Under the pieces are notes generated by a model that was given only the letters and a program-made list of their open reading frames with translations, ran no database searches and had not been told where the DNA came from. A stretch of DNA of 32,000 nt from Halomicronema hongdechloris C2206 (GTDB lineage Bacteria; Cyanobacteriota; Cyanobacteriia; Phormidesmidales; Phormidesmidaceae): NCBI RefSeq assembly GCF_002075285.3, contig NZ_CP021983.2, forward strand, positions 3,450,001 through 3,482,000. The letters are read 5' to 3'. Of the stretch, positions 759 to 18,630 are shown piece after piece. The position numbers were made by a program, and so were the translations under genes. Position 1 is the stretch's first letter, and each line of letters opens with the position of its first letter.

Positions 759-3700
759 CTAAGTTGGAGCCGCAGCCAGCATTTCAGACAAAGCCGTCTC
801 GACATCCAACAATACCCGTTCCAGATCTTCCCGAATGTGCGCCACCAGCCGATCGAGTTGGTCGAGAATGTCTTGGGGGTCAAGGGTGGTGGCTAGGCGA
901 ATCTGTTCAAAGGCATCATTGAGGGGCGCTTGTAGATTGAGCGGATTGAGCAGGTCGAGTGCCGATAGGATCTCGCCCCACTGCTCAGAAATGGTAGTTT
1001 GCAACCCCCTAAGACTGGTAATAATGCCGTCAATGATGTTCGTAAATCCCTGGGTTTTGCTGCTCAGGTCCAGTTCGGCCAGAAGGGTATCCGGATGGAG
1101 ACTGTCCAAAGCCGTCACCAACGGTGTGTACACGTCAGCCTCTAAATCGGCAATGATTCCCGCCGGATTGAGGGCTTCGAGCTGAGCCTTGAGCGGATTG
1201 TAGATTTCGCCAAAGGCTTGCTTCAGAAGCGTGGGTAAAAAGCCCGTGGTGTTGGCACTCAAGCGATCGAGAATGGGGGGTAACTCGGCCACAAAGACAT
1301 CGCCAAACTGGGCTGTTTTCACGGCAAATTGTTCGTACACTTGGTTGACTTCGTCCGCCAATCGTCCCGGATTGAGGATTTCAAGGTGGGCCTGAATATT
1401 CTCCAGACTTAGTGTTTCTTGCAGAAAAGGCGGAATCAGCCCGGTTAACTGTTCACTCAAAGGACCAAACGCAGCCGCCAATTTGCCCACATTCAAGCCA
1501 GTGGTCAGGCGTAGGGTGTTGCGATTGAGACTTTGGAATGTGGGGCGAAAGTCAGCCAGGGTCAAGTCTGGATTGAGGCTGGGAATTGTTCCGGCAATTT
1601 GGAAATAGTCGGTTTGCAAGGCGGCGGGCACTTGTACTATATCGATACTATCCAAAGCCAACAGCAGTTCCCCGTAGGCACTGTAAACATCGGCGACGAG
1701 ATCGAACCGTTGGGTAAAGTCAAAGCGGGCCAGTTGTTGTTGTAAATCCGAGGCAATTTGGGCGGAGAGATTGAGGGGAGCGATCGTCGCTAAAGCCTCC
1801 ACAAATTGGCCCTTTAGATGATTAAAAGCATCGACTAAGGTGGCTTCAGGAATTTGGGTTAAAGCTCCAACAACTTTGTTGTAAACATCTTCGACCGGAC
1901 GGAGAATATCCCCTGGCATAAATCCTAGGGTGTCATCTGCCGGGTCGGGCGTATCTGGGTCTAGATAAGTCTTCAGATCACCGGCACTGTTAAACCCATC
2001 TCCGACATTTTGGAGTCCCCCCAACGCTTGCTGCAGCCATTGGCTAAACATCCCCTCAAGTTCATCTAGAAACGGGGTAATGTCTAACTTGTCAAACAGC
2101 GCCATGATATTGGCAAACTGCTGGGTTAGCGGTGTCAAAAGCTGACTGGGAGAAAGATCTGCCATTGCCTGCTGGAGCGCTTCAAAGAGTTGTGTTAAAG
2201 GGGCGATCGCTTGCGTTATCAGTTGATCCAGCCCCCCTAACTGTTGGGTAAATGACTCAATCTGGTCCAGCACCGGATCAATCAATGTCGCGGGATTATA
2301 CTGATCCAAGGTGCTTTTGACGTGATTAAACGGTTCTGCTAGGGGCGTTAGCAAATTGGCCGGATTATAGTCAGCCAGTTTATCCGTGAGCGCCTGATAT
2401 TTGGCGAGCAGTTCATTCACCAAATTACCGGGATGGACTTGATCAAAAGTATTGAGAATTTCGGTGCGGACAGGGCCAAGGTCGATGTTCGACAGGACTC
2501 CGGCGCTAACTCGAAAAGCACTCAATTCAGCTTCCGATAGCAAATTTTCATTGATCGACTCCAGTGTTGCTTCCAAACTGCGAATGGCTTCGATAATCGG
2601 TTCGGCAAACTGACGGAAATCAATGTCTTCTAACTGTCCAATCAAGCCGCTGACCTGATCCAGGGCATCGTCGAGGACCGGGCCAAAACTGGCGATCAAC
2701 CCCTGCACCTGATTCAGCAGATTCATCACCTGATCGCGAAAGGCTTCAAGGGGAATGGCGGCGATCGCCGATTCGATCGCTGTTCCCACGTCGGAAATCA
2801 GGGTTTCGACCTGATCGCCCCCCGTTTCAAGGCTTGCGAGCACTGAGTCGATCTGGTCGCAGGCGGCTTGAATCGCAGTTTTCACGCCATCAGTTTGGGA
2901 GGTGATGCTGGTGATGCCATCCCCGAGGGTGCCAAAGAAATCTGCGATCGCATCCCGAAACTGGTCTAAATTCAAACTGGCGATCGCCTCCCCGATGGCG
3001 TTAAAGGGCTTAAGCAGTCCCGCCTGGATTTCATCGAATCCCTGCCCTTGAATCACGTCGTCCAGATAGCTGTTGGCATCTCTCAACCGTTGGGTCAACG
3101 CTTCTGGCGTCAGGGCATCCAGCCGAGCGGTGATCTGTTGAATCGGCGTCAGCACCAGTTGCAAAAAATCATCCACCTGGGCCACTTTGACCTCGGGAAC
3201 GTTTTCCAGAGTCTGCTGCAAATTGTCGTTCAAGCCTTCCACGTTCAAGCTAGACAATCCGGTCTGAAAGTCGTTGACCAACTGGGTTAATTGGGTTTGC
3301 ACTCCGGTCAGATGGCCTTGAGCTGCGGTGACCCCCGTTTGCAGGCTTGGGTAGGCAGCAGCATCGGTTAAATCCAGCGTTCTCAATTGGGTAGCCAAGG
3401 TCCGAAATTGGGTGGCTGTGGTTTGCAACGCAGTCTCAAATGCCTCCACTTGAGTCGCATCCAGCAACCCGGCGATGTCTGCTTGCATGCCCTCTACCAG
3501 ACTTAGGGGGGCGGCCAGCAGGTCGAGGGGTACGCCGAGAAAACTCTGGGCCAAAAACGTCGCGACCTCTGTCGGATCGCTGGGCAGATTGGCTTCAAAG
3601 GTTTGCAACGTATTGACGAAGGTCTGCAACACTTCCAAAGATTCTGTCGGGATCAGCGTGTTGAACTCGGCAATCAGGCTATTCACCAAGGAAATAGGAT

Positions 3701-16959: not shown

Positions 16960-18630
16960 TTATTTCAGATTCATCGTGACGCGGATAAAGTCGATGCTGA
17001 AGGTTGGCTGCAGCGTCATCGTCACATTCACTTCCCCGGCAATCTCTTGAGCCCGAGTTGCCGTCACCTCCAAGCTGTAGCCAGTCAGAGCCTCATCTTC
17101 AACCATGCGGGTTAGGAAGGCATCCAGCGTAGCCTTCAGCGCCCCCCGTACCCGCGCATTGTTCAGCCGACCAATGTAGGGATTGGCAGCAGAGCGAACC
17201 CCGTATTTGGCATAGTCCACGATCCGACGGGTGGGAATGGCTGAAAAGGGGGCGCCTTCGCCCGCTGTGGTGAGCCCCTTGACGATCCGATAGCCCAGCT
17301 TGGGAATCACCGTCAGCACGTTGCGCTTAATCAACTGAATCTGCTGCCCCGGATTTGCCGAAAGCGCTAAACCTGGCACAATCAAAGGCTTATTGGTCAG
17401 GCTAGTTTGTACGGGCAGAGAGGCAATCAACCCAGCAACCGCCGCTGCTGTGTAGGCGGTAGGCAGTACTATCCCGTCCACAGTAATCATCCCAGGGGCA
17501 ACCAGGATGAGGCGATCGTCGGCGATGTTATGCCCCAGAAACTCTGCAACCGTGTCTCCGGGTGCCCCCATCACCCCAATTCGCTCATGGTCTGTTTGCT
17601 CGGTGGATTTGAGATGGGCTTGCAACACCGACCCCATCGCCTCGGCATCTTGCCCGGCCAATACCACAATGTTGATCAGCTCATCGGCGAGGACAGCTAG
17701 CCCTTCCCCGTATTCCGTGGCAGCGGCTTCTGCCCCGTTACTCCCTGGCGTATTGCTCCCCGTGCCAAAGTAGGCATTGACCCCAACCTGAGGCAGATTT
17801 CCTCCTGCAGTTGCGTTAGGGGTGGTGTCTACCAACAGCGAGGTTTGGTTGACTAGGGTGGCTAGATAGTTGCCATCGGGGACGGTGTAGGACTCGCTTA
17901 GGGGACTAATGTCTAAATTGACCTGTACACAACTGGCTTGATCCACTAGATAAGATGCCAGGAGGCGATCGCCATTGGCTGCATCGGGGGCTTCTCCCGT
18001 GGCAAAGATCAAGCTACCATCCTCGACGGTAACAACCACCTGTCCCGATTCAGGCGTTTTAGTTTCTGTCCCTTCCTGATAGACAATGTCCAGTGGTTTC
18101 GTCAGCTTACTGACGCCTCGGTAAATCCGGATTTGGTTTTCGGCTGACGGCACGATGGGGGCATAATTCAGCCCGGTAAACGTGTCTTCGTAAACCTCCG
18201 ATTCAATCCGGCAGTCCTCCTCTGCTTCGGCTATCTCAATTTGCAGATCGTTGGCCCAGGTACCGGGTGTCTTTGCCACCAAATTGACTGTCGAGTTGCC
18301 ATTGCTGTCGCGCACAGCATAGGTCGCCTTCGACTGGCTGCTCCCCGCCACCCGAACAGCCACCACACTCGATGCCCCATTGTTGTAAAGCTGCTCCAAA
18401 GTTCGCACCAGTGTCAGGGGATTACTGCCATCCACTGGCTGAGCAAAGTCATCGGGTAGACCAAAAACCTCTCGGGCATTGGCAAAACCGGATAAGGTCA
18501 CAGGTTCACCAACGGGACCACTGGCAGCAGTGCCGACAATGCCAACAATGCCTGTCGCCACACGTCCAGCCGAGATCAGTCCTTCGGAACGCACAGTAAT
18601 ATACGTTCCCGGAATGATCATTTCAACCAT
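16960..18630 (-). CDS. Contractile tail sheath protein (556 aa)
   Basis: The N-terminus MVEMIIPGTYITVRSEGLISAGRVATGIVGIVGTAASGP matches the conserved start of P2 FI / Mu gpL-type sheaths (PG.y......G......t.ivGivGtA..G). The C-terminal part ...RRIVDYAKYGVRSAANPYIGRLNNARVRGALKATLDAFL is typical of the sheath C-terminal domain. A strong SD (GGAGGA) lies 8 nt before the ATG. This is the first gene of the operon. Confidence 0.9.
   Translation of the reverse strand: MVEMIIPGTYITVRSEGLISAGRVATGIVGIVGTAASGPVGEPVTLSGFANAREVFGLPDDFAQPVDGSNPLTLVRTLEQLYNNGASSVVAVRVAGSSQSKATYAVRDSNGNSTVNLVAKTPGTWANDLQIEIAEAEEDCRIESEVYEDTFTGLNYAPIVPSAENQIRIYRGVSKLTKPLDIVYQEGTETKTPESGQVVVTVEDGSLIFATGEAPDAANGDRLLASYLVDQASCVQVNLDISPLSESYTVPDGNYLATLVNQTSLLVDTTPNATAGGNLPQVGVNAYFGTGSNTPGSNGAEAAATEYGEGLAVLADELINIVVLAGQDAEAMGSVLQAHLKSTEQTDHERIGVMGAPGDTVAEFLGHNIADDRLILVAPGMITVDGIVLPTAYTAAAVAGLIASLPVQTSLTNKPLIVPGLALSANPGQQIQLIKRNVLTVIPKLGYRIVKGLTTAGEGAPFSAIPTRRIVDYAKYGVRSAANPYIGRLNNARVRGALKATLDAFLTRMVEDEALTGYSLEVTATRAQEIAGEVNVTMTLQPTFSIDFIRVTMNLK

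Follow-up and report, generated by a model that had tools for sequence, protein, structure and literature searches.

The window analysed here is a stretch of 32,000 nucleotides from Halomicronema hongdechloris C2206 (contig NZ_CP021983.2, positions 3,450,001 to 3,482,000), and it carries an operon for a contractile tail of the phage type. Seventeen co-oriented genes are packed on the minus strand between positions 18630 and 759 (Table 1). They are separated by gaps of 2, 24, 6, 18, 155, 9, 7, 33, 6, 2, 14 and 65 nt or overlap by 4 nt (at 10668, 12342, 12995 and 15840; the downstream start is ATG in all four cases, and the ATGA was read directly at 15840), and all of the open reading frames (ORFs) are intact. 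A gene for an RHS protein follows on the same strand, starting at about position 543, 215 nt past the gene for a 1104-aa protein, and exits the window at its left edge. An initial annotation had described about 18 tightly spaced co-oriented genes with four ATGA overlaps, and the ORF coordinates show this layout to be accurate (17 genes, then RHS). Family scans of the 32-kb window found no capsid, portal, terminase, integrase, lysis or AAA+ genes, in agreement with that annotation, which had seen no lysis cassette, integrase or AAA+ ATPase. We conclude, with a probability of roughly 0.8, that the product of the operon, known from its genes alone, is a complete contractile injection particle with no head, and that it belongs to a family conserved across several phyla.

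Table 1. Features of the operon and its surroundings (window positions), and giant S8 genes of related loci (positions in the locus named).
Feature	Position	Strand	Basis or remark
RHS gene, 5' part, first 181 codons	1..543	-	YD repeats from ~residue 50; gene leaves window
Tape-measure-like all-helical protein, 1104 aa	759..4073	-	four tape-measure PHROGs, 1e-11 to 1e-6
Putative tail terminator/cap, 258 aa	4076..4852	-	AlphaFold2 (AF2) model, pLDDT 80, and Foldseek
Small coiled-coil protein, 84-111 aa by start codon	4877..5212	-	only coiled-coil-type Pfam matches
Tail fibre, 523 aa, conserved N-terminus, variable distal part	5219..6790	-	PHROG tail fibre matches
Fibre N-terminal/collar protein, 159 aa	6809..7288	-	PHROG_5417 7e-20; weak Pfam Phage_tail_fib
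Wedge protein, gpI/Mup48 slot, 434 aa	7444..8748	-	PHROG_1160 baseplate protein 1.4e-15
Baseplate J/gp6/Mup47-like wedge, 637 aa	8758..10671	-	Pfam Baseplate_J 1.4e-23
gp25/gpW/Mup46-like sheath initiator, 142 aa	10668..11096	-	PHROG_975 1.2e-15
Conserved baseplate-region protein, 254 aa, possible Ig/PKD-like domain	11104..11868	-	Pfam PKD E=0.0011, below cut-off
Family-specific protein, 147 aa, candidate PAAR-like spike tip	11902..12345	-	directly after spike gene
Central spike, gpV/Mup45-like, 218 aa	12342..12998	-	Pfam Phage_base_V 31.9 bits (cut-off 23.8)
Baseplate hub, gpD/Mup44-like, 348 aa	12995..14041	-	NCBIfam VgrG_rel 3.7e-10
gp43-like hub/tube-initiator (Mup43 N-terminal domain-like), 197 aa	14048..14641	-	Pfam DNA_circ_N
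Protein in tape-measure slot, 399 aa	14644..15843	-	conserved termini, variable Pro/Ser/Thr-rich middle
Tail assembly chaperone slot, 179 aa	15840..16379	-	position, as Mup41
Probable tail tube, 166 aa	16394..16894	-	position directly after sheath, size, conservation
Tail sheath, 556 aa, first operon gene	16960..18630	-	Phage_sheath_1, Phage_sheath_1C, Gp18_domIII_N above Pfam cut-offs
AT-rich leader, 467 bp	18631..19097	-	5' of sheath gene; read directly
IS66-family transposase remnant	19098..19280	-	C-terminal ~50-60 codons only
S8 subtilase with P-domain, 740 aa, no evident signal peptide	19384..21606	-	Pfam Peptidase_S8 1e-38, P_proprotein 2.5e-13
Giant S8 protein, L003	16375-21363
Giant S8 protein, L004	16415-21475
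Giant S8 protein, L006	16508-21550
Giant S8 protein, L007	16656-21710
Giant S8 protein, L010	16202-21460
Giant S8 protein, L011	16137-21242

Tail genes of the operon

The gene order is that of Mup39-Mup49, gene for gene, in the annotated record of phage Mu (NC_000929), and the Mu tail module (Mup39-Mup50) runs in the same order from sheath through fibre. The initial annotation spoke of a Mu/P2 order. The comparison with NC_000929 supports the Mu part of this claim, and the P2 part falls away because the tail genes of P2 are arranged differently from those of the operon. Sequence similarity to Mu itself is marginal. When family alignments were compared with single Mu proteins by hhalign, J, V, W and the hub each had the right partner at the top, at low probabilities of 40%, 17%, 10% and 6.4%, and nothing was obtained against the Mu sheath, tube, chaperone, tape measure or I protein.

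Profile hidden Markov model (HMM) searches of the kind that had been suggested as a check gave clear matches for the sheath, Baseplate_J and Phage_base_V, and weak matches in Pfam for gp25, DNA_circ_N and Phage_GPD. HMM support is strong for the predicted sheath, the Baseplate_J wedge and the OB domain of the gpV-type spike. The sheath scores 58 and 48 bits in Pfam, matches PHROG_279 (tail sheath) at 7e-47 and shares its whole sequence with XM38_032910 of H. hongdechloris C2206 (100% identity). The J-like protein matches PHROG_6 at 1.6e-56 and wedge proteins in the PDB down to 1.7e-13. For the gp43-like protein, which is 41-60% identical in all relatives, the matches are DNA_circ_N at 22.1 bits (cut-off 21), a weak Dit_like and a PHROG baseplate hub at 7e-4; the gpD-like hub matches Pfam Phage_GPD at 0.009 and a PHROG baseplate hub. 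These two assignments are weak but consistent. The gp25-like protein has weak Pfam matches to GPW_gp25 and Sheath_initiator, and Sheath_initiator is also recorded for its orthologues. The protein in the I slot has no Pfam match at E<=0.01, and hence no Tail_P2_I, and is split over two genes in Kovacikia.

The tube candidate is 70-85% identical across loci and shows a weak match to phrog_290, 'minor tail protein', in four of five members; no Pfam, NCBIfam or PDB sequence match was obtained for it. The chaperone-slot protein, 54-70% identical in relatives, gave no family match. Its stop codon overlaps the start of the 399-aa gene by 4 nt in all five loci checked, and a search of five loci for a programmed -1 frameshift between the two genes found no conserved slippery site.

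Related clusters in other phyla

Homologue searches with the J protein and the sheath yielded the loci L001-L017, taken with flanks of up to 10 kb. They come from Kovacikia (L001), Chloroflexota (L003/L013 and L005), Caldilineales (L004/L012), Burkholderiales including Pelomonas, Ideonella and Azohydromonas (L006-L011), two IMG/VR contigs (L014 and L015) and two close relatives of the window with 85-93% protein identity (L016 and L017). The same cluster is found in other Cyanobacteria, Chloroflexota and Burkholderiales; cellular homologues of its proteins are 52-93% identical and belong to several phyla where the source is named. The sheath has more than 2000 homologues, the best 120 of which all have E<1e-216; where a source is named for them, it is Cyanobacteria, candidate division KSB1 or Acidobacteriota. 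When the 258-aa and 147-aa proteins are followed in the same way, single homologues are also named from Rubrobacter, Dehalococcoidia and Desulfatitalea. The cluster occurs in phyla far apart with 41-70% identity between the proteins, which may reflect horizontal spread. The window's sheath has 556 aa and most family members have ~645 aa; a minority (P0002, P0003, P0020 and P0109) share the short form (~553-557 aa), which appears to have no ~90-aa insertion in the N-terminal third.

In all nine Chloroflexota, Burkholderiales and IMG/VR loci in which the region is seen, the gp43-like gene is followed by the gene for a ~1140-aa protein, the RHS gene and gpD. Where the downstream part is also seen, it consists of gpV, the 147-aa and 254-aa genes, gp25, J, I, the fibre N-terminal gene, the fibre gene, the coiled-coil gene, the 258-aa gene and a giant S8 gene. 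The latter, the last cluster gene in Chloroflexota and Burkholderiales, encodes a subtilase of 1660-1750 aa with a large insert and no evident signal peptide. Halomicronema, L016 and L017 differ from this order only in that the 1104-aa/RHS pair is relocated to the 3' end and the giant S8 gene is missing. Kovacikia has no 254-aa gene and no 1104-aa/RHS pair between gp43 and gpD. In the comparison of the window with L003, L004, L006, L007 and L009-L015, the 1104-aa and RHS genes move as a pair, with RHS always immediately downstream where the pair is seen, and insertion sequence (IS) elements flank the Halomicronema-type clusters. The initial annotation had listed the 147-, 254-, 111-, 258- and 1104-aa genes and RHS as non-canonical additions; they are not local oddities, being conserved components of the family across phyla. 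In L005, a Chloroflexia metagenome-assembled genome, the genes for the 1104-aa homologue, RHS, gpD, gpV and I appear broken into two or three ORFs, and this locus is either a pseudogenised copy or the product of assembly frameshifts.

Domestication of the tail

The window does not include some 3.4 kb of the RHS gene or any of the DNA past it, and the operon could accordingly be half of a Mu-like prophage, ordinary or decaying, whose head genes stand there. We consider this highly improbable. No prophage genes for head, packaging, integration or lysis are contiguous with the tail in the window or in the flanks (up to 10 kb) of L001-L017, and no capsid, portal, terminase, AAA, lysozyme or holin Pfam families are recorded in the relatives' loci. 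The sheath is the first cluster gene in the seven loci with a visible start (L001, L002, L012-L015 and the window). Upstream of the cluster in the window, beyond a subtilase gene, lies the host's cyanobacterial atp operon (subunits a, c, b', b, delta, alpha and gamma). In the other six, the gene directly 5' of the sheath is cellular or belongs to an IS transposase: two-component systems in L001, lipoate ligase in L002, Nramp and Usp in L012, hydrolases and ABC transporters in L013, amidohydrolase and catechol dioxygenase in L014, and an IS-type integrase-core (rve) transposase in L015. The two IMG/VR contigs carry the same head-less cluster beside cellular or IS genes. Where the far end is seen, the last gene is again followed by a host gene or IS elements: a fragment of a major facilitator superfamily (MFS) transporter is next in L007, and IS elements are next in L016. 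L016 and L017 have the same arrangement as the window, and RHS is the last gene seen in both, the contig of L017 ending at it.

The phage side of the comparison also speaks against a prophage. Among 50,697 phage genomes no close relative of the sheath was found, the best matches having 25-34% identity over part of the protein, and none of these genomes carries the tail as such. For each of the 13 genes that the window shares with L017, and for the RHS N-terminus, the ratio of nonsynonymous to synonymous substitution rates (dN/dS) lies in the range 0.06-0.17. Such values indicate purifying selection and hence a domesticated machine kept by selection. The cellular and IS flanks, the lack of a close phage relative and the low dN/dS, together with the intact ORFs, argue for a domesticated head-less particle, as the initial annotation had proposed, and against both a prophage and a remnant in decay.

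Proteins specific to the family

The top Foldseek matches of the 258-aa model in the PDB are the phage 812 neck, the gp7 terminator of cyanophage A-1(L), P1, T4 gp15 and the diffocin collar, and its matches in BFVD include entries that bear the names tail terminator, neck terminator or sheath completion. Because the TM-scores are low (~0.2-0.36), the terminator call places the protein in a fold family and does not amount to a close match. The protein has no sequence-level family match, and its homologues measure 256-263 aa in almost all cases among the matches listed. With a tail-terminator fold in this protein, tail completion is encoded after all, at the 3' end as in extracellular contractile injection systems (eCIS) and unlike in Mu, where the neck/tail-completion genes Mup36-38 and the head genes stand 5' of the sheath. 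The earlier statement that no such genes lie upstream of the sheath in the operon is correct, and has to be amended only in that completion itself is present.

The 1104-aa protein is acidic, all-helical and without a hydrophobic segment of transmembrane length. Its orthologues are 1104-1142 aa long across phyla, their alignment is collinear end to end, and orthologues only ~22% identical match the same tape-measure PHROG families. By the rule of ~0.15 nm per residue that holds for tape measures, a ruler of 1104 aa would set the tail length at ~165 nm. The 399-aa protein occupies the slot in which Mu has its tape measure. In its family (326-399 aa), ~60 N-terminal residues and a C-terminal L..LE..F.RTYGxSGG are conserved, the middle is disordered and unalignable, and no family matches were obtained. 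The initial annotation had assigned the tape-measure slot to a largely disordered protein; the variable disordered middle is real, but the 1104-aa protein is the better candidate on its PHROG matches. Two possible roles for the 399-aa protein are that of a second factor in assembly and that of a short ruler. Over the Pro/Ser/Thr-rich middle of its gene, the GC skew reaches +0.34 (15001-16000).

Between spike and gp25 the initial annotation had placed a PAAR-like gene and a PKD-domain gene. Both genes are present and conserved, but the domain labels are weak and below threshold. In the family of the 147-aa protein a sub-threshold PAAR_motif appears in 10 of 23 members (best E 0.0018), and the AF2 model is poor (pLDDT 51). 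The profile gave nothing significant and no PAAR link among PDB sequences, and against 1.84 billion protein representatives it retrieved only 79 clusters (50% identity), all of the family, with no bridge to canonical PAAR. Orthologues of the 254-aa protein stand in the same slot in Chloroflexota and Burkholderiales at 30-38% identity, and the one that was scanned had no PKD match.

The small coiled-coil gene is kept in the slot after the fibre in seven loci and is annotated as 83-84 aa in L016 and L017. What had been called an unknown distal module of 111, 258 and 1104 aa, with an RHS gene after it, is real and conserved, but its members can now be described as a coiled-coil protein, a protein with a terminator fold and a tape-measure-like protein beside RHS.

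RHS protein and tail fibre

L016 has an RHS protein of 1308 aa, with whose N-terminus the RHS fragment in the window shares 80% identity. The RHS orthologues have 715-830 aa, or 1307-1308 aa in Halomicronema-type loci (L016 14315-18241, L017 14316-18239), and match RHS_repeat and TEN_YD-shell. A short disordered N-terminus is followed by YD repeats, a YDPxxGRF core (five of eight orthologues) and a cleavage-like motif PxxxxD(P)xGH (eight of eight); no PAAR or other recognisable N-terminal adaptor was found on the protein. Some 140-150 residues past the cleavage-like motif, an HExxHxxQ is invariant in all eight, among the two to three hydrophobic segments of helix length that the C-terminal domain contains. 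These hydrophobic helices and the HExxHxxQ make the domain a candidate membrane-active or metalloprotease effector. The domain matches no Pfam family and is the most conserved region of the protein (column identity 0.75-0.89), so that RHS is a fixed component of the system and not a polymorphic toxin. In the Halomicronema-type proteins a further ~450-500 aa follow the HExxH domain, an extension that resembles Ig-like repeats, gives a weak SprB-repeat match and is missing from the 715-830-aa orthologues.

The gap between the 1104-aa and RHS genes is 217-218 nt in L016 and L017. Its retention suggests a separate regulatory or terminator/promoter element for RHS. In the window the gap (544-758) contains a hairpin-like inverted repeat, CCCGTC...GACGGG.

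The fibre is encoded by two genes. The 159-aa N-terminal protein is 45-56% identical in all relatives, and in distant loci the 523-aa fibre is conserved over no more than its first 57-90 residues. Proteins in the fibre slot of L004 and L001 carry a Peptidase_S74 chaperone domain, and the fibre gene is the part of the operon with the lowest GC. The conserved N-terminus and variable tip, the Peptidase_S74 domain of the relatives and the low GC argue for recognition of foreign cells.

Comparison with known contractile systems

Like the R-type tailocins, the operon is a head-less contractile tail cluster kept in the chromosome, and Mu-derived R-type tailocins are known in Pseudomonas syringae (R-syringacin). 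A classical tailocin of this kind would kill relatives through membrane depolarisation and nothing else, and RHS and the subtilase would be mere neighbours, unrelated to it. The Mu gene order, the lack of head genes and the variable fibre tips fit such a particle, but several features do not, and we judge it improbable. In all nine Chloroflexota, Burkholderiales and IMG/VR loci that show the region, the structural operon includes RHS and the 1104-aa gene, placed between gp43 and gpD, and the two remain paired when relocated. The Pfam families of a holin/endolysin lysis cassette and of flanking stress-responsive regulators are found neither in the window nor in the annotated relatives, the terminator is at the 3' end, and a cross-phylum identity of 41-70% is unlike strain-level bacteriocins. 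Compared with Mu and R-type tailocins, moreover, the operon adds the 147-aa, 254-aa, coiled-coil and 1104-aa proteins and the RHS protein with its HExxH motif, and most relatives add the giant subtilase.

The operon resembles the eCIS (Afp, PVC, AlgoCIS) in being head-less and chromosomally fixed, in having a cap/terminator near the 3' end and a candidate toxin gene in the operon, in having no dedicated lysis cassette and in its wide distribution in environmental bacteria. In the Afp-like order the tube comes first, sheath paralogues are multiple, the hub and spike form a VgrG fusion, and the tape measure and ATPase come late. As the initial annotation had stated, the order here is not of the Afp/PVC type: a single sheath gene comes first, and the gpD-like hub and the gpV-like spike are separate genes. 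The effector is conserved and not variable. No AAA-type Pfam match corresponding to the eCIS AAA+ ATPase (Afp15/Cis15) was found in the operon proteins or related loci, and the DUF4255/Pvc16 cap and T4-gp19 tube signatures are absent from the 258-aa and 166-aa proteins (Pfam, E<=1). The initial annotation had suggested a possible lineage intermediate between R-type tailocins and eCIS/tCIS. As far as the features go, the operon is a mosaic of tailocin and eCIS traits, in which neither type is represented by every trait tested.

No TssB/TssC, ClpV or TssJLM membrane complex families belonging to a type VI secretion system (T6SS) occur in the window, and the sheath is single and of the phage type. 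The RHS protein is similar to the T6SS Rhs proteins carried on VgrG-PAAR in its YD shell, YDPxxGRF core, PxxxxDPxGH cleavage-like motif and C-terminal domain, and its gene likewise lies near a spike and, in the family, a possible PAAR-like protein. It differs from them in that the proteins of the operon family are short (715-830 aa in most loci) and without PAAR, and in that the C-terminal domain is conserved across phyla.

Proposed mode of action

For the head-less injection particle we propose the following sequence of events, based on the predicted gene functions. The baseplate would nucleate polymerisation of tube and sheath around the tape-measure-like 1104-aa helical protein, and the 258-aa terminator would cap the tail. 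The two-gene fibre (159 aa and 523 aa) would bind the target cell through its variable tip and trigger contraction. This would drive the spike, with the 147-aa PAAR-like protein perhaps at its tip, into the target. The spike would carry the RHS protein, whose YD shell would enclose the conserved C-terminal domain and deliver it as a candidate membrane-active or metalloprotease effector. The particle is probably extracellular and targeted by its fibre.

The main rival to this scheme is a membrane-anchored or cytoplasmic contractile system in or on the producer cell, with the RHS C-terminal domain as a membrane tether; the lack of lysis or export genes and the hydrophobic conserved RHS domain give it this place. 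The thylakoid-anchored contractile injection system (tCIS) of Anabaena and the Streptomyces CIS are models for systems of the producer cell, and the tCIS host is a filamentous cyanobacterium, as is the host here. No lysis cassette or secretion gene is found in any locus, the conserved RHS C-terminal domain has hydrophobic segments of helix length, and a non-polymorphic C-terminus with no adjacent immunity gene identified is unusual for an antibacterial RHS toxin. However, the tail-fibre genes with their variable tips and Peptidase_S74 domains point to an external receptor. The contractile systems known to work inside cells are members of the Afp-like eCIS lineage, and those of its markers that were tested are absent here. 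We regard a producer-cell system as unlikely, though clearly less so than a tailocin or a prophage.

Several points weigh against the extracellular injection particle that we prefer. As no lysis or secretion route is encoded in the cluster, release from the cell has to be assumed. Instead of a payload, the RHS C-terminal domain could form a membrane anchor, and no immunity-like gene is consistently adjacent to the RHS gene. The tube and chaperone are probable assignments from position, size and conservation only, and the PAAR-like nature of the 147-aa protein is weakly suggested and should be taken as a lead. The 1104-aa protein is the likelier ruler on its profile matches, but the 399-aa protein may be the ruler instead. 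Finally, that no head genes stand past the window's left edge is drawn from two close relatives, L016 and L017.

Significance

It is an evenly balanced proposal, in our view, that the Halomicronema operon is a member of an unrecognised multi-phylum class of contractile injection systems that is independent of Afp-type eCIS, T6SS and known tailocins. With the same reserve, the class would be defined by a Mu-order core, a terminator encoded at the 3' end, the 147- and 254-aa baseplate proteins, the pair of a ~1100-aa tape-measure-like protein and a short RHS protein with a hydrophobic HExxHxxQ domain, foreign to Pfam, as its conserved cargo, and, in most lineages, a cytoplasmic subtilase of 1660-1750 aa. 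We found no description of this family in the literature searched, which is not proof that none exists.

Contractile injection systems are drivers of microbial interactions and are mined as programmable protein-delivery devices. Catalogues built on Afp, T6SS and pyocin markers miss this family. Geller et al. 2021 (PMC8213781) give one genome for Halomicronema and three for Ideonella in their supplementary table of genera, with 0 eCIS in both; the genus of our window was thus eCIS-negative in that survey. If the proposal is true, the class would be common in metagenomes of soils and mats, given the more than 2000 homologues of the sheath, and would represent an independent domestication of a phage tail with a new type of effector, which would be fixed, encapsulated and membrane-directed. 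It would also give a testable case of an RHS capsule coupled to a non-T6SS spike, and the particle is a candidate mediator of antagonism or programmed lysis in cyanobacterial mats and soils.

Surroundings of the operon

Upstream of the sheath the initial annotation had seen an AT-rich leader, an IS fossil and a protease, and the three were recovered as the 467-bp leader, the IS66 remnant and the S8 subtilase. The leader contains one weak promoter-like site (19087-19058), which is no better than chance; it cannot be aligned with the leaders of L001 and L002, and no Rfam family matched it. The IS66 remnant is 55-69% identical to the C-terminus (~50 residues) of IS66 transposases on cyanobacterial plasmids, with E down to 4e-14 (tblastn).

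It is uncertain whether the subtilase is part of the injection system. It is at most a possible orthologue of the giant subtilase of the relatives, the similarity being only generic (24-31%) and confined to the catalytic domain. Directly past its stop codon, on the minus strand at 19343-19375, the heptamer GTGACGA is repeated four times in tandem. Farther upstream, a 232-aa ORF with no family match occupies 21918-22616 on the plus strand, and a truncated TrkA_N gene of 114 aa (22826-23170, minus strand) lies between the subtilase and the atp operon.

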